Source: Escherichia phage mEp234
Sequence record: PV340539
Reading direction: 5' to 3' (one strand)
Length of the DNA: 40,804 bases
Below are positions 1-40,804 of the stretch, piece after piece. Below the pieces are notes generated by a model. The model was not told the origin of the DNA. It saw only the letters and a list, made by a program, of their open reading frames with translations, and ran no database searches. Every line of letters begins with the position of its first letter. Position 1 is the first letter of the stretch. The position numbers and the translations under genes are program-made.

Positions 1-177
1 TTCGTAATCGTGAAAGAGGAAGGTAGGTTGTTTATCTGTGTCTGTCATTGTCTAGCATTGTCCACTGTAGTTAATTAACTGTCTGTTATAACTCGAAAAA
101 CAACCATTTTTTCACCTGAGTATGTCTACTAACGTCAAATATAGTTGTTTACTGTGCGCTGTTGTCCATGTGATATT

Positions 178-224
178 GTGTACCAGATGTGTACCAAACC
201 ATTATTTCTGAGCGTACCAAATAT
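178..224 (+). repeat. Cluster of three GTACCA(A/G) direct repeats just upstream of int; putative integrase arm-type binding sites (attL-side arm)
   Basis: 'tgtgtaccag', 'tgtgtaccaaacc', 'gcgtaccaaata' within 50 bp; same motif recurs at 40727-40749. Confidence 0.4.
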
Positions 225-229
225 TATTT

Positions 230-1408
230 ATGGCTATAAGCGACACAAAACTGCGTACTATTTATGGTAAACCATATTCGGGCCCACAAGAAGTGGCTGA
301 TGCCGATGGCCTCAGCGTACGAATTTCACCGAAGGGGGTCATCCAGTTCCAGTACCGCTATCGCTGGCATGGCAAGCCTAATCGACTTGGGCTTGGTCGA
401 TACCCATCCCTGTCTTTGAAGGATGCCAGACAGATCACTGCTGACTTGCGAAAGCTCTATTTCTCAGGAACGGATCCACGCACTTATTTTGAAGAGAAGG
501 TGGAGAACTCCATGACGGTCGCCCAGTGTCTCGACTACTGGTTCGACAATTACGTCTCTACAACTCTCAGAGAAAAGACCCAGGCACTTTACCGATCAAC
601 GGTTATGAAGCGCATGCATGACGCCTTCCCTAATCGACCGGCATCTTCTATCACGGTTAAGCAATGGGTTGACCTGCTTACCGAAGAAGAAAAAGATAAT
701 CCACGCCGAGCAAGGCAGGTGCTAAGTCAACTAAGATCAGCAATTAGTTGGTGCATGCGGCGTCAGTTGATAGATAGTTGCGCAATTATGAGCATCCAGC
801 CAAGGGACTTCGGCTCCCGCGCTGAGGTAGGGGATCGGGTACTGTCGTATCACGAACTGGCTAAGATTTGGCTTGCTATTGAAAGAAGCCGTGCGTCTAC
901 GTCAAATAAGCTCCTTCATCAGATGCTTATGCTGTGGGGGGCGAGGCTCTCAGAGCTTAGGCTGGCAACAAAGACAGAATTTGACCTGCTGGACAACGTA
1001 TGGACCGTACCGAAAGAGCATAGCAAGATGGGTAATGTTATCCGCCGTCCAATCTTCGAACAAATTAAGCCTTTTCTCGAAAAGGCCATGACAACGTACA
1101 ATGATGTTCTTTTCCCTGGAGAAGACATAAACAAACCGATCAGCATCGCTGCAGCCAACCGATTCGTAAACAGAATAAGGGGAGGGATGGATCTAGGTTA
1201 CTGGCGAACACATGATTTCAGAAGAACGCTTGTTACACGTCTGTCCGAGATGAATGTCGAGCCTCATGTTACTGAGCGAATGCTCGGTCATGAACTTGGC
1301 GGGATAATGTCCGTATACAATAAACACGACTGGATAGAGGCTCAGCGCAAAGCGTATGAGCTTCACGCTGATAAATTGTTCTGGCACATCAGGAGCATTT
1401 CTGATTAA
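230..1408 (+). CDS. int: Tyrosine site-specific integrase, P4-like with N-terminal arm-binding (DUF4102-type) domain
   Basis: 392 aa; N-terminus '...GLSVRISPKGVIQFQYRYRWHGKPNRLGLGRYPSLSLKDAR', C-terminal 'HDFRRT...RMLGHE...Y' catalytic signature. Confidence 0.93.
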   Translation: MAISDTKLRTIYGKPYSGPQEVADADGLSVRISPKGVIQFQYRYRWHGKPNRLGLGRYPSLSLKDARQITADLRKLYFSGTDPRTYFEEKVENSMTVAQCLDYWFDNYVSTTLREKTQALYRSTVMKRMHDAFPNRPASSITVKQWVDLLTEEEKDNPRRARQVLSQLRSAISWCMRRQLIDSCAIMSIQPRDFGSRAEVGDRVLSYHELAKIWLAIERSRASTSNKLLHQMLMLWGARLSELRLATKTEFDLLDNVWTVPKEHSKMGNVIRRPIFEQIKPFLEKAMTTYNDVLFPGEDINKPISIAAANRFVNRIRGGMDLGYWRTHDFRRTLVTRLSEMNVEPHVTERMLGHELGGIMSVYNKHDWIEAQRKAYELHADKLFWHIRSISD

Positions 1409-2050: not shown

Positions 2051-2218
2051 AGAAATCCCCGCGAGTGCGAGGATTGTTATGTAATATTGGGTTTAATCAT
2101 CTATATGTTTTGTACAGAGAGGGCAAGTATCGTTTCCACCGTACTCGTGACCTGCTCCCCGTTGATTAGTACACCCCGATGTTAGTAATGTCTTCATAAG
2201 CCACATGAGGACATCCCC

Positions 2219-2482
2219 ATGAAGAAGCGTTTTTCCGACGAACAGATCATCAGTATTCTCCGCGAAGCCGAAGCTGGGGTACCCGCCCGTGAACTCTGCC
2301 GCAAGCATGCCATTTCCGATGCCACGTTTTACACCTGGCGTAAGAAGTATGGCGGTATGGAGGTGCCTGAAGTTAAGCGCCTGAAGTCGCTTGAGGAAGA
2401 GAACACCAGACTCAAGAAGCTGCTTGCCGAAGCCATGCTGGATAAAGAGGCGCTTCAGGTGGCTCTTGGGCGAAAGTACTGA
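2219..2482 (+). CDS. IS3-family transposase OrfA (HTH DNA-binding part)
   Basis: 87 aa '[46 protein letters not shown]...' typical IS3/IS407 OrfA with leucine zipper. Confidence 0.9.
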
Positions 2483-2505
2483 CGACAGACCAGAAGCGGG
2501 AAGCC

Positions 2506-3339
2506 GTGATGTTGATGTGTGATGCGACCGGTCTGTCGCAACGTCGTGCCTGCAGGCTTACAGGTTTATCCCTGTCGACCTGCCGCTATGAGGCTCACCG
2601 TCCGGCTGCTGATGCGCATTTATCAGGGCGCATCACTGAGCTGGCACTGGAGCGCAGGCGTTTTGGCTACCGTCGTATTTGGCAGTTGCTGCGCCGTGAA
2701 GGGCTTCATGTTAATCATAAGCGCGTGTACCGGCTTTATCACCTCAGTGGCCTGGGCGTAAAACGCAGAAGACGTCGTAAAGGGCTGGCAACAGAACGTC
2801 TGCCGCTGCTCCGTCCGGCGGCGCCCAATCTGACCTGGTCGATGGATTTCGTCATGGACGCACTTTCCACCGGTCGCAGGATCAAGTGTCTTACCTGCGT
2901 CGATGATTTCACAAAGGAATGCCTGACGGTCACTGTTGCCTTTGGGATTTCAGGCGTTCAGGTCACGCGTATTCTGGACAGCATTGCACTGTTTCGAGGC
3001 TATCCGGCGACGATAAGAACTGACCAGGGGCCGGAGTTCACTTGCCGTGCACTGGATCAATGGGCCTTTGAGCATGGTGTTGAGTTGCGCTTAATCCAGC
3101 CGGGCAAGCCAACGCAGAACGGATTTATTGAGAGCTTTAACGGACGATTTCGCGATGAATGTTTGAATGAGCACTGGTTCAGCGATATCGTTCATGCCAG
3201 GAAAATTATTAATGACTGGCGGCAGGATTATAACGAATGCCGCCCGCACTCCACGCTGAATTATCAGACACCGTCTGAATTTGCAGCGGGCTGGAGAAAG
3301 GGTCATTCTGAGAATGAAGATTCCGACGTTACTAACTGA
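2506..3339 (+). CDS. IS3-family transposase OrfB (DDE catalytic domain); probably expressed as OrfAB fusion by -1 frameshift in 2446-2482
   Basis: 277 aa with '...[54 protein letters not shown]...'; frame -1 relative to orfA, open from 2446. Confidence 0.9.
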
Positions 3340-3368
3340 GTGTTGTATCTAATCGTGGGGGCAGGTCA

Positions 3369-3513
3369 CAACGGCGCTGTAGTTTGTCCATTCTTTCTTT
3401 TTTGTCTGGCGATCGTAATACTGAACGCCAGCACGGATGTTGAATCCGATATTTTCCCCGGCCTGAAACTCTCTTGCGGGCTTGTTTAGTCTTACAGTAA
3501 TCGAATGTGCCAT
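3369..3513 (-). pseudogene. 5' fragment (~48 codons) of a gene translationally coupled to erf, truncated by the IS element; weakly SSB/OB-fold-like
   Basis: ATG overlaps erf stop (TAATG); 'MAHSITVRLNKPAREFQAGENIGFNIRAGVQYYDRQTKKKEWTNYSAVV' then runs into the IS inverted repeat; no continuation beyond the IS. Confidence 0.45.
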
Positions 3514-7000: not shown

Positions 7001-7426
7001 TTATTTTCTAGATGATGTTGGGGACCAAGGTAACGTTATAGTATCTAACACTGTGTTTTTGAACATATTTTCAAAAACTGTTTTTGTACATACATATACA
7101 TAATTTTCAAAAAACCAAGCATTTTCATTATAAAAATCCTCAGTTACTTCTTCATCGAGGTCACACTCAAATGTTAGTGTCAAGGTAGCCTCTGCCTTGA
7201 ACAATACATCCTCACCATCATCAAAATCTTTTTTATCGCGAGGGAAACCAGTTATCGATGGCTTAACTTCAATAAAGAGCCAATTTCCATCTTCATCTTT
7301 TTGAGGAACAACGTGATGCTCAGAAAATTTTAAGCTATATTTTCCGCCTTCAGAATTATCACTGTCGTCGATAAAAAGGGAAGAACCCTCGAGATCAAAT
7401 CCCTTAAAGCGAATTTTATCAAGCAT
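7001..7426 (-). CDS. Strongly acidic 141-aa protein of unknown function, third gene of the rex-slot cassette
   Basis: ATG overlaps hicB-like stop (TGATG); D/E- and aromatic-rich ('DDSDNSEGG', 'DKKDFDDGED', 'ECDLDEEVTEDFYNENAWFFENY'); track ORF 7001..7462 starts at a TTG, the ATG at 7426 is preferred. Confidence 0.6.
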   Translation of the reverse strand: MLDKIRFKGFDLEGSSLFIDDSDNSEGGKYSLKFSEHHVVPQKDEDGNWLFIEVKPSITGFPRDKKDFDDGEDVLFKAEATLTLTFECDLDEEVTEDFYNENAWFFENYVYVCTKTVFENMFKNTVLDTITLPWSPTSSRK

Positions 7427-7899
7427 CAATGTGGCACTCCGTTGTCTACTGAAACTTCCCAATAGGTCTCTTCTGTACGTCTACGGGATGAGAAGAAAGT
7501 AACTTCTCTAACATCCCTCGGTTTTTCAAAGTGGTAGTGAACCTCTTTTTTCCCATTAACTGACTCACTGACAGCCTGTTTTACATAATCGTTTAAAGTC
7601 ATATTCTTAGCTTTAGCAGCTAAATATGCTTTTTTATGCAGGGATTCACCTATCCGGATGTTAAACGAACCACTCATTGTCTTATCTGGAGATTTTCCTA
7701 TCTCTTCACAAGTGGAGAGGTAATCGTCCACGGCCTCCTCAAAGGCTGCACGGAGTTCTGCAACCGTTGCACCCTCATAAGTGACGAGATCATTTATACA
7801 TTCGAGTTTTCCATGCATCACCCCATCTTCAAATGAAATGCTGGAGCTACCATAGTAACCTTTGTATTTCATCAAGTTATTCATGATCATCAATCTCAT
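7426..7899 (-). CDS. HicB-like antitoxin-family protein with ~45-aa C-terminal extension (start ambiguous: 7899/7890/7884/7872)
   Basis: '...MKYKGYYGSSSISFEDGVMHGKLECINDLVTYEGATVAELRAAFEEAVDDYLSTCEEIGKSPDKTMSGSFNIRIGESLHKKAYLAAKAKNMTLNDYVKQAV' matches the HicB fold/RHH pattern; overlaps hicA-like 3' end. Confidence 0.7.
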   Translation of the reverse strand: MRLMIMNNLMKYKGYYGSSSISFEDGVMHGKLECINDLVTYEGATVAELRAAFEEAVDDYLSTCEEIGKSPDKTMSGSFNIRIGESLHKKAYLAAKAKNMTLNDYVKQAVSESVNGKKEVHYHFEKPRDVREVTFFSSRRRTEETYWEVSVDNGVPH

Positions 7900-8131
7900 C
7901 TAACAGCTGTTTAACTTCTTCCAAGACGTACCTTTTGAGGGTGTTTTCAGGATGAGGCTCATGAAAAATGACCAATCTATCAACACGTTGGTTGTAAAAT
8001 TTACGGCCAGAACCTCGTTTAGCATTCAAAAGCTTGAAGCCATACTGGTTCATGAGAGTAACGAACTCATCCCAAGTAAAATTTTTGGGTAAGCCGTCTA
8101 ACTTTGACTTTAGCTTTTCCTTTCTTCCCAC
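7877..8131 (-). CDS. HicA-like (YcfA-fold) toxin-family protein, GTG start
   Basis: 84 aa; '...GFKLLNAKRGSGRKFYNQRVDRLVIFHEPHPENTLKRYVLEEVKQLL' resembles the HicA motif but has GSGR where GS(N/H)H is expected; toxin-first order as in hicAB. Confidence 0.6.
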   Translation of the reverse strand: MGRKEKLKSKLDGLPKNFTWDEFVTLMNQYGFKLLNAKRGSGRKFYNQRVDRLVIFHEPHPENTLKRYVLEEVKQLLDEIDDHE

Positions 8132-20197: not shown

Positions 20198-21712
20198 ATG
20201 ACGCGAGGTGAGCGTGTAATAGCGTTCATTGAGCGCTTTTGCATCGTGCCAGAAGGCAAGCTTATCGGCCAACCTATGCGGTTGGACCCCTTTCAGAAAG
20301 ATTTCATCCTGGCGGTTTACGACAATCCAGCCGGAACGGATATGGCGATCCTCTCCATCGCCCGAAAAAATGGTAAGACTGGCCTGATTGCCGGAATTCT
20401 GCTGGCTCACCTGGTGGGGCCTGAAGCGGTGCAGAACACGCAGATTGTCAGCGGTGCACTCAGCCGGGAACAGGCGGCCATCGTTTTTAACCTCGCGGTG
20501 AAGATGGTTAACCTGAACCCCAAGCTGCAGGAGATTGTGCACATTACGCCCAGCGGCAAAAAGCTGATCGGCCTGCCGTGTAACGTCGAATACAAGGCTT
20601 TATCCGCAGAAGGTAAGACGACGCACGGCCTTTCCCCCATTCTGGCCATTCTCGATGAAACAGGGCAGGTTAGGGGCCCGCAGGATGATTTTATCGATGC
20701 AATAACTACGGCGCAGGGGGCTCATGAAAACCCGCTGCTAATCGTTATCAGTACGCAGGCAGCAAACGATGCTGACCTGCTTAGCATCTGGATTGATGAT
20801 GCGGTCAAATCGAAAGATCCGCACATCGTGTGCCACGTTTATGAAGCGCCAAAAGACGCTGATATCAGTAAACGCGAGTCCTGGCTGGCTGCGAACCCGG
20901 CACTGGGAACATTCAGGTCAGAAAAAGACATGGCGCGCCAGGCTGAGAAAGCTGGCCGAATGCCAAGCTTCGAAAACACCTTCCGAAACCTCAACCTCAA
21001 TCAGCGCGTGTCTACCGTATCGCCGTTTATCTCCCGCAGCGTGTGGGAGCTTTGCGGAGAGATGCCGATTAACACCCCGAGGAAGTGGTACGCGGGGCTG
21101 GATCTGTCAGCCAGGAACGACTTAACGGCGCTGGTTATCGCTGGTGAAGCAGATGATGGTGTCTGGGATGTTTTCCCCTTCTTCTGGACACCGCAAAAGA
21201 CTCTTGAAGAGCGAACCAAAACGGACCGAGCACCCTATGACGTTTGGGTGAGGGAGGGGCTGCTGCGCACCACGCCAGGAGCTTCGGTGGATTACTCATT
21301 CGTCGTTGCGGATATCGCTGAAATTATCGGTGATTTCGACCTTACCTCGATGGCTTTTGACCGCTGGCGCATTGACCAGTTCAGGAAGGATGCCGATGCC
21401 ATTGGGCTGAGCCTCCCGCTGGTCGAGTTCGGCCAGGGCTTTAAGGATATGGGGCCAGCTGTAGACACGCTGGAGTCTCTGATGCTTAACGGGCGCGTGA
21501 GGCATGGCATGCACCCCGTATTAACGATGTGTGCTGTGAATGCGGTGGTGGTGAAAGATGCTGCTGGCAACCGCAAGCTCGATAAATCCAAAGCAACGGG
21601 CCGTATTGATGGCATGGTCGCAATGACAATGTCCGTTGGTGCTGCTAATGGGGAAGTTACCGAACAGGGTGGTGACTTCGACGACTTCATTTTCCGACCG
21701 CTGAGCATGTGA
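20198..21712 (+). CDS. Terminase large subunit (ATPase + nuclease)
   Basis: 504 aa, Walker A 'ARKNGKTG'. Confidence 0.9.
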   Translation: MTRGERVIAFIERFCIVPEGKLIGQPMRLDPFQKDFILAVYDNPAGTDMAILSIARKNGKTGLIAGILLAHLVGPEAVQNTQIVSGALSREQAAIVFNLAVKMVNLNPKLQEIVHITPSGKKLIGLPCNVEYKALSAEGKTTHGLSPILAILDETGQVRGPQDDFIDAITTAQGAHENPLLIVISTQAANDADLLSIWIDDAVKSKDPHIVCHVYEAPKDADISKRESWLAANPALGTFRSEKDMARQAEKAGRMPSFENTFRNLNLNQRVSTVSPFISRSVWELCGEMPINTPRKWYAGLDLSARNDLTALVIAGEADDGVWDVFPFFWTPQKTLEERTKTDRAPYDVWVREGLLRTTPGASVDYSFVVADIAEIIGDFDLTSMAFDRWRIDQFRKDADAIGLSLPLVEFGQGFKDMGPAVDTLESLMLNGRVRHGMHPVLTMCAVNAVVVKDAAGNRKLDKSKATGRIDGMVAMTMSVGAANGEVTEQGGDFDDFIFRPLSM

Positions 21713-23003: not shown

Positions 23004-23681
23004 ATGCCTGAAATCGTAAAAACGCTGTCCTTCGACGAGACAGAAATCAAATTCACCGGTGACGGTAAACAGGGGATTTTTGAAGGCTACGCCTCTGTTT
23101 TTAATAACACCGATTCCGATGGCGACATCATTCTGCCCGGGGCGTTTAAAAACGCGCTGGCGAACCAGACCCGAAAAGTGGCGATGTTTTTTAACCACAG
23201 GACGTGGGAACTGCCGGTTGGCAAATGGGACAGCCTGGCTGAGGACGAAAAAGGCCTGTATGTGCGCGGTCAACTTACCCCAGGACACAGCGGCGCCGCT
23301 GACCTAAAAGCGGCAATGCAGCACGGTACGGTTGAAGGTATGTCGGTTGGCTTTTCCGTTGCGAAAGACGATTACACCATCATTCCAACAGGCCGCATTT
23401 TTAAGAATATCCAGGCTCTGCGCGAAATCAGCGTCTGCACTTTCCCCGCCAACGAACAGGCTGGCATCGCAGCCATGAAAAGTGTCGATGGCATTGAAAC
23501 GATTCGTGATGTGGAGAACTGGCTGAGGGATTCAGTCGGCCTCACCAAATCACAGGCAGTTGGGCTAATTGCCCGGTTTAAGTCAGCGATTCGGAGCGAG
23601 TCCGAGGGCGACGGAAACGAAGCACAAATAAACGCTCTGCTTCAGAGCATCAAATCTTTCCCTTCTAACTTAGGTAAATAA
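23004..23681 (+). CDS. Prohead maturation protease (HK97 family)
   Basis: ~225 aa between portal and major capsid; track start 22992. Confidence 0.8.
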   Translation: MPEIVKTLSFDETEIKFTGDGKQGIFEGYASVFNNTDSDGDIILPGAFKNALANQTRKVAMFFNHRTWELPVGKWDSLAEDEKGLYVRGQLTPGHSGAADLKAAMQHGTVEGMSVGFSVAKDDYTIIPTGRIFKNIQALREISVCTFPANEQAGIAAMKSVDGIETIRDVENWLRDSVGLTKSQAVGLIARFKSAIRSESEGDGNEAQINALLQSIKSFPSNLGK

Positions 23682-40212: not shown

Positions 40213-40726
40213 AAATTATAACTGCCGCAACCATGCCGTATGCAAGAGCATGATTGCGGCCGACTAGCGAACGTTCGATAGTGCGAGTATTGAATGATTT
40301 CAAGCCGTTACCGATTTTACTATGTTTTCAGTAGAACGCTTAGACAAAACTGAGGCGCACAAAGCTTTGCACTGGATTGCAAGACTTTGTTCTATTCGAT
40401 AGTTTAAGGTCGCTCACTCTACCTTTTCATCAAGCCAGTCCGCCCACCACAGCATCATTTCTCTGCGCTTAATGTAGCGGATGCCTCACTATCACATAGT
40501 GATGGTTCATTACTGCTTTGTAGAATGGATAGAGAACTGAGGATAAAAAGATATCCCAAAACCCCAAAATCTCATCTTTAGGATTTGCAGAAAGGGAGGC
40601 GTGAACAGATACCTGCGCATGAAGACGGAACTAGTCCAGATGTGATATTTGTGGTGATCACATACATCATCAACGATGCTCGTTATGGTGAGTTTGATGA
40701 CTACCCGCTGAAGTGAAAATAGTGTT

Positions 40727-40749
40727 GTGTACCAAATTGCGTACCAAAC
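40727..40749 (+). repeat. Two GTACCAAA direct repeats near the right end; putative integrase arm-type sites (attR-side arm)
   Basis: 'tgtgtaccaaatt' + 'gcgtaccaaacta', same orientation as the 178-224 cluster. Confidence 0.4.
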
Positions 40750-40804
40750 TAAAATCACAAATCATGAAACCCTTGTTCATGGCGGTTCTCAGGGGTATTG
40801 CGCG

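Follow-up and report, generated by a model that had tools for sequence, protein, structure and literature searches.

Five direct repeats in the attachment-site arms of the mEp234 prophage at sbcB are probable arm-type sites of its integrase

The stretch of DNA analysed here (40,804 nucleotides, hereafter the window) was found to be 100% identical over its whole length to the lambdoid phage mEp234, permuted at the attachment core and with the insertion of a single IS element as the only difference. This ISSen4-like insertion lies between positions 23242 and 23243 of mEp234, inside the HK97 gp40-like gene mEp234_028, and no obvious target-site duplication was seen around it. In E. coli C and in the strain WG5, copies identical to that of the window are present 20 times. 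The annotation of mEp234, transferred by coordinates, places a HicB/HicA toxin–antitoxin pair at 7426–8131 (minus strand), between the PL region and the cI repressor gene.

The left end of the window carries the attachment core, the 5′ end of a reading frame of the host gene sbcB, three of the repeats that are the subject of this study, the integrase gene int, and a small gene that converges on int and overlaps it at the 3′ end. The two other repeats and the first bases of the second core copy lie at the right end (Table 1). Just before the first of these right-hand repeats, a remnant of an S24-peptidase/UmuD-like gene (approximately 40430–40717, plus strand) ends in DDYPLK and a stop codon. 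This remnant corresponds to an annotated pseudogene in a related lysogen, and the intact UmuD-like gene of HK140 ends at the same place, beside a feature labelled "putative attP".

Table 1. Features of the window that bear on the attachment site and its neighbourhood
Feature	Position	Strand	Details
Hybrid sbcB, 5′ end	1–48	−	start codon 48–46; from translations and the RefSeq CDS of a 99.7%-identical lysogen
attL core (O)	3–15	+	CGTAATCGTGAAA; 13-bp identity of attP, attB, attL and attR; sole exact match in the window
Candidate int promoter	148–177	+	−35 TTTACT (148–153), 18-nt spacer, TG-extended −10 GATATT (172–177); weak, 8/12
Arm-type site P′1 (predicted)	177–187	+	TGTGTACCAGA
Arm-type site P′2 (predicted)	188–198	+	TGTGTACCAAA; 11 bp after P′1
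Arm-type site P′3 (predicted)	211–221	+	AGCGTACCAAA; 23 bp after P′2; ends 8 nt before the int ATG
int (tyrosine integrase, 392 aa)	230–1408	+	100% identical to mEp234 Int (tblastn)
AlpA/HTH_17-like protein, 63 aa, presumed excisionase (RDF)	1389–1580	−	convergent with int, overlaps the int 3′ end
IS3-family, ISSen4-like insertion	2148–3369		1222 bp; absent from free phage mEp234
IS orfA	2219–2482		
IS orfB	2506–3339		with rve domains
Arm-type site P1 (predicted)	40726–40736	+	TGTGTACCAAA; GTAC 74 bp left of core start
Arm-type site P2 (predicted)	40738–40748	+	TGCGTACCAAA; 12 bp after P1; GTAC 62 bp left of core start
attR core, first two bases (CG)	40803–40804	+	from attR of a related lysogen; 40804 aligns to mEp234 21099

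The attachment site of the free phage was reconstructed by joining positions 40405–40804 of the window to positions 5–400. The joined sequence was 100% identical over 796 bp to free mEp234 (JQ182732.1, 20700–21495), and the match spans the mEp234 feature "prophage attachment site (type 2851)" at 21098–21110. As the reconstruction is identical to the free phage, both clusters of repeats flank one and the same core.

An earlier publication gives the core sequence CGTAATCGTGAAA, under the name "type 2851", as attP for both phage 2851 and phage Sf101 (PMC4159516), and the record of phage 1717 carries an annotated 13-bp duplication. A comparison of the junctions showed GGTTTCGTAATCGTGAAACAAAAAGG at attB (the empty K-12 site), GGTTTCGTAATCGTGAAAGAGGAAGG at attL and TATTGCGCGTAATCGTGAAACAAAAAGG at attR of lysogens, with CGTAATCGTGAAA as the common core. 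Bases 1–2 of the window (TT) are host sbcB sequence. The right end of the window reads ...GCGCG, its final two bases opening the attR core; the remaining 11 of the 13 nucleotides, TAATCGTGAAA, fall past the right edge, where the sequence is expected to continue as TAATCGTGAAACAAAAAGG. In the initial annotation, the core sites seemed to lie outside the window. This is excluded for attL by the exact core copy at its left end, and it is correct for most of the attR core. The same annotation had seen no long direct repeat between the two ends of the window, and indeed there is none, because the window was cut inside the right-hand core and retains two nucleotides of that copy. The attB core itself lies within an imperfect dyad, GTTTC-GTAATCGT-GAAAC, so that strand exchange would be placed inside GTAATCGT.

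The prophage is integrated at the 5′ end of the coding sequence of sbcB, the gene for exodeoxyribonuclease I. Positions 1–1500 of the window matched 584 E. coli records at 95–99.7% identity, adjoining sbcB, and this integrase type adjoins sbcB in 583 of 5426 complete E. coli genomes (roughly 11%). In the lysogen that is 99.7% identical over this region, sbcB lies on the opposite strand with its annotated start at window position 48, followed by tsuB, tsuA and plaP. The last 600 bases of the window matched a lysogen (96.7% identical) with dacD, sbmC and yeeA beyond them. A tRNA or tmRNA gene just upstream had been considered the likely target in the initial annotation, which had also proposed a search of the flanks for a direct repeat and for such a gene. 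When this search was carried out on lysogens and K-12, the direct repeat was found as the 13-bp core, and ARAGORN detected no tRNA or tmRNA gene in the window, within 3 kb on either side of the element in lysogens, or at the empty K-12 site. A target of this kind is thus excluded.

Integration leaves a hybrid sbcB reading frame. Codons 1–11 (about 11–12) are supplied by the phage, MTDTDKQPTFLFHDYE replacing the native MMNDGKQQSTFLFHDYE with the frame kept, and the native sbcB promoter is also replaced by the prophage. In the RefSeq annotation of lysogens, sbcB is intact and 474 aa long. The 13-bp core encodes the residues F-H-D-Y of SbcB, which we take to adjoin the catalytic Asp15/Glu17 of exonuclease I; such a position beside catalytic residues would explain the conservation of the target from E. 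coli to Salmonella. The attP of the Salmonella phage SEN34 was seen by eye to carry its own in-frame version, GTG...TFLFHDYE.

The deduced Int protein contains the Pfam domains Arm-DNA-bind_3 (residues 4–85, 8e-18) and Phage_integrase (1e-16). Among the PDB entries, it matched the N-terminal domain of a CP4-like Int (3jtz, 1.8e-11) and full-length lambda Int (5j0n/1z1b, 2.5e-7, i.e., about 1e-7). Its identity across the type-2851 phages is 98.7–100%, the value for HK544 being 98.7%. The small protein encoded opposite to int gave weak Pfam matches below the gathering threshold; its homologues in mEp234, HK544 and Sf101 are annotated as AlpA family or excisionase-like. A gene for this presumed RDF accompanies the integrase gene in every match of the phage collection.

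Three copies of a repeat at the left end of the window and two at the right, all in one orientation, had been noticed from the letters of the sequence, and this count was confirmed, the third left-hand copy being a one-mismatch variant, GTACCAGA (180–187). The 8-mer GTACCAAA has four exact copies in the 40.8 kb (at 191, 214, 40729 and 40741), all on the plus strand, against an expected 0.91, and at least four copies were reached in 1 of 100 shuffled sequences. A window-wide search with one mismatch allowed found 22 sites against 26 expected, i.e., no enrichment. The 11-mer WGYGTACCARA is common to all five copies and has five exact matches on the plus strand and none elsewhere in the window; its expected count is 0.12 and five copies were reached in 0 of 100 shuffles, figures that are generous because the consensus was derived from the same sites after they had been seen.

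All five repeats fall within the two arms of the attachment site. The motif is unlike the core sequence and is present on both sides of it. Counted from the core start of the reconstructed attP, the GTAC at the centre of the motif has the positions −74 and −62 (P arm) and +177, +188 and +211 (P′ arm), and over the 478 bp of the reconstructed attP-to-int region GTAC occurs at the five repeats only. The attP sequences of the type-2851 phages vary little, and the sole change inside a site is found in Sf101, where the degenerate Y position of P2 has T in place of C. A full-text literature search for the 8-mer GTACCAAA returned about 1,095 matches, all of them unrelated.

Diverged integrase lineages were collected by tblastn with Int as the query and 50,697 phage records as the database, which yielded relatives with 49–61% identity. 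For each of them, the position of GTAC was counted from the start of int. In the window these positions are −301/−289 in the P arm and −50/−39/−16 in the P′ arm. The corresponding values are −302/−290 and −50/−39/−15 in SEN34 (Salmonella; Int 60%; same sbcB core), −296/−284 and −52/−41/−17 in Lys12581Vzw (an ArgO145-type Stx2a phage; Int 56%; tRNA-Arg-CCT core), −295/−283 and −51/−40/−16 in yong2 (Hafnia; Int 54%), and −280/−268 and −38/−27/−7 in ENT39118 (Cronobacter; Int 49%). In P18-100 (Klebsiella; Int 61%) the P′ sites are found at −50/−39/−15, and the P arm is cut, as the record starts at −290. The offsets of about −300/−288 and −50/−39/−16 are thus kept in four of the six relatives, with the counterparts of P′1 at −50 to −52, of P′2 at −39 to −41 and of P′3 at −15 to −17 in SEN34, P18-100, Lys12581Vzw and yong2. 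Kp4871-1 (Int 56%) can be added by its equal spacings of 12, 11 and 23 bp, and in ENT39118 the order of the sites is kept about 10–20 bp nearer to int.

The 330-bp upstream regions of these relatives are otherwise near random with respect to the window (identity 0.62–0.65 vs 0.60–0.62 for shuffled sequences). The element that they share is GTAC, which is extended to GTACCAAA in the lineage of the window and mostly to GTACA in the relatives. The N-terminal part of Int (approximately 100 residues) is 58–62% identical to that of the three relatives aligned. We read the conserved layout as a phylogenetic footprint, which marks the repeats as putative functional protein-binding sites of the recombination module and is the main evidence for their function. 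In the ArgO145-type Stx2a phages, vB_EcoS-733R5 and yong2, whose Int proteins are about 55% identical to that of the window, the core is about 24 bp long and corresponds to the 3′ end of tRNA-Arg-CCT. Given this core in the sister lineages and the sbcB core in SEN34, the clade has switched between a tRNA and a protein-coding target while the layout of the arm sites was kept.

The type-2851 phages (the Stx2c phage 2851, Sf101, HK544, HK140 and mEp234) represent the same system, as the core, the sbcB target and Int all match. Their records and PMC4159516 annotate the 13-bp core only, apart from the 147-bp "putative attP" in the record of HK140. The five arm repeats are unmarked in the type-2851 GenBank records inspected and in PMC4159516.

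A more distant comparison was made with phage P4. Its integrase aligned with Int of the window over 76% of the query at 25.8% identity (tblastn against X05947, E 9e-7), with 31% in the N-terminal region. In the P4 attP record, the 20-bp core occupies positions 156–175 and the int ATG is at 327. The repeat GGGGGCA, which presumably represents the P4 Int site, occurs there as a pair 12 bp apart at −75/−63 from the core start, as two direct copies at +134/+146, and as one inverted copy over the int start, the P′ copies overlapping the annotated −10 element. Pierson and Kahn reportedly described the P4 att repeats as Int sites in 1987. P4 and mEp234 are alike in the domain order of Int, in the position of int next to the core and read away from it, and in the P-arm pair (−75/−63 vs −74/−62). 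They differ in the motif (GGGGGCA vs GTACCAAA), in the third P′ copy, which is inverted in P4 and direct in mEp234, in the distance of the P′ sites from the core (+134 to +174 in P4 vs +177 to +211), and in the core itself, which is 20 bp long within a tRNA-Leu gene in P4 and 13 bp long within a protein-coding gene in mEp234. With the P-arm pair at the same distance in the two phages, the geometry of the P arm is thus a conserved property of the P4 family, and its motif is not. P4-like integrases typically use the 3′ end of a tRNA or tmRNA gene as the target, although this does not strictly define the family. As regards mEp234, the relationship and domain order of Int and the orientation of int agree with this subfamily, and the target, the sbcB coding sequence, does not. 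The initial annotation was therefore right about the direction of int, which points away from attL as it does in P4-like elements, with the core at 3–15 and int at 230–1408 on the plus strand.

Two other systems resemble mEp234 in part. The arms of lambda also contain two P-arm and three P′-arm sites, and its heterobivalent Int is detectably homologous (E 2.5e-7). Meanwhile, the motif and the spacings of the lambda arm sites differ from those of mEp234, and transcription of lambda int runs towards att, under the control of pI/pL and sib rather than of arm sites over its promoter. In the prophage KplE1 (CPS-53) and in HK620, which use IntS–TorI at argW, the P′ sites are located in attL and int is directed away from it, as in mEp234 (PMC2951348). 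KplE1 belongs to another integrase lineage, has P′ sites containing TAAA, and uses a tRNA target; its sites were mapped experimentally, whereas those of mEp234 are predicted.

The region between the core and int was also searched for regulatory signals. A standard promoter scan of positions 1–400 (at least 9/12) found no promoter, and no terminator was found there either. A relaxed scan written for this purpose gave the putative promoter listed in Table 1, which would start transcription within P′1. The string CATG-Y-GATAYTG directly 5′ of P′1 (168–179) is common to the window, SEN34 and P18-100, which fits GATATT as the −10 element of int in these lineages. Bending factors such as IHF are expected in a lambda-type intasome. 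A search of attP with the IHF consensus WATCAANNNNTTR gave no convincing site, the single one-mismatch match overlapping P′2. The part of the P′ arm between the core and P′1 contains a second recurring element, TTGTTT/AAACAAC, with the copies GGTTGTTTATC, GAAAAACAACC and AGTTGTTTACT (26–36, 95–111 and 137–150) forming inverted repeats; similar TTGTTTAT strings were seen by eye about 30 bp 5′ of P′1 in P18-100 and yong2. These elements could be sites for the RDF or for a host factor.

P′1–P′3 span −53 to −9 before the int ATG. As these sites take up the last 53 bp ahead of the start codon, their occupancy by Int probably also represses int. Repression of this kind is known from P4, where Int represses its own promoter (PMC7286903), and from KplE1, where the P′ arm sites of IntS overlap PintS and mediate negative autoregulation (PMC2951348).

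Taken together, the five repeats are very probably the arm-type sites P1, P2 and P′1–P′3 of the type-2851 integrase of mEp234, a phage inserted through the 13-bp core CGTAATCGTGAAA in sbcB. The initial annotation had already proposed arm-type sites, and this proposal gains support from the Arm-DNA-bind_3 domain of Int, from the occurrence of the motif in both arms of attP and from the retention of its positions in lineages with 49–61% identical integrases. The only serious competitor for the role of the binding protein is the AlpA-like RDF encoded at 1389–1580. The sites of RDFs typically form direct repeats at intervals of about one helical turn (PMC7498355), which the spacings of 11–12 bp would fit. 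The covariation of motif and protein also fits the RDF as well as it fits Int, since every phage match of this integrase lineage also carries the RDF gene. No phage with the same RDF and a different Int was found in the phage collection, and as the two genes are always inherited together, mosaicism cannot show which of the two proteins is the binder. The sites of lambda Xis are known from the P arm only, which counts against the RDF of mEp234. Against it also stand the weak Pfam matches of the small protein, the geometry shared with the P4 repeats, whose pair lies at −75/−63 from the P4 core, and the distribution of the motif over both arms (two and three sites), whereas all five TorI sites of KplE1 are in attL (PMC3509656). 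We therefore consider it quite improbable that the repeats serve the RDF instead of Int.

A purely regulatory role, in which the repeats would be promoter or operator elements of int or sites of a host regulator and would take no part in recombination, is highly improbable. The location of P′1–P′3 is where a promoter, an operator and a ribosome-binding site are expected, and the weak candidate promoter ends at 177. Such a role would leave P1 and P2 unexplained, as these lie in the prophage 40 kb from int, beside attR, and in attP across the core from int at a distance that is conserved from this clade to P4; nor would it need sites on both arms. That the repeats are due to chance, or are neutral remains of a local duplication, is effectively refuted by the comparative data. 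The 8-mer taken alone and its one-mismatch variants would agree with chance, as the shuffling results given above show. The five exact 11-mers and their confinement to the att arms would not, and neither would the conservation of the positions in six other integrase lineages within nearly random upstream DNA.

Recombination inside CGTAATCGTGAAA at the 5′ coding end of sbcB has integrated mEp234 and placed the P arm with P1 and P2 in attR and the P′ arm with P′1–P′3 in attL, directly 5′ of int. If the repeats are Int arm sites, the following course of events can be proposed. Integrases of the lambda type are heterobivalent, i.e., they bind the core and the arms separately. In mEp234, the C-terminal domains of Int would bind and cut the core and its N-terminal Arm-DNA-bind_3 domain would bind the GTAC-centred arm sites, bridging the arms to the core in an intasome for the attP × attB integration. 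Int together with the AlpA-like RDF would provide the same bridging for the excisive attL × attR reaction, and Int bound to P′1–P′3 would probably also repress int.

This reading could be extended further. The arm sites would then be dual-purpose: a complex of Int (and the RDF) bound to the P′ arm in attL would both repress int and control the phage-supplied promoter region of the hybrid sbcB, a gene that starts at position 48 and runs opposite to int. In addition, an invariant GTAC with a lineage-specific 3′ flank and a P-arm pair at about −75/−63, from P4 to the Stx phages, could provide a predictive rule for the arm sites of this integrase family. We regard this extension as rather unlikely. 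If it were true, the level of exonuclease I would depend on the state of the prophage in those complete E. coli genomes, roughly 11%, that carry this integrase at sbcB.

For mEp234, the type of integrase, the core of 13 bp and the target sbcB were, like the phage itself, already known and annotated, and the arm repeats are an unsurprising addition to them, a routine refinement of a known system that involves no new mechanism. With this type of integrase, sbcB is the integration site of Stx2c, Stx1a and Stx2a phages, of the serotype-converting phage Sf101 and of many lambdoid prophages that are non-toxigenic. Their full functional attP would consist of the core and the five predicted arm sites, about 300 bp in all as compared with the annotated 13 bp. 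Knowledge of the full attP would help to define exact prophage ends, to design attP/attB excision assays and integration vectors, and to predict cross-reacting pairs of integrases and att sites.
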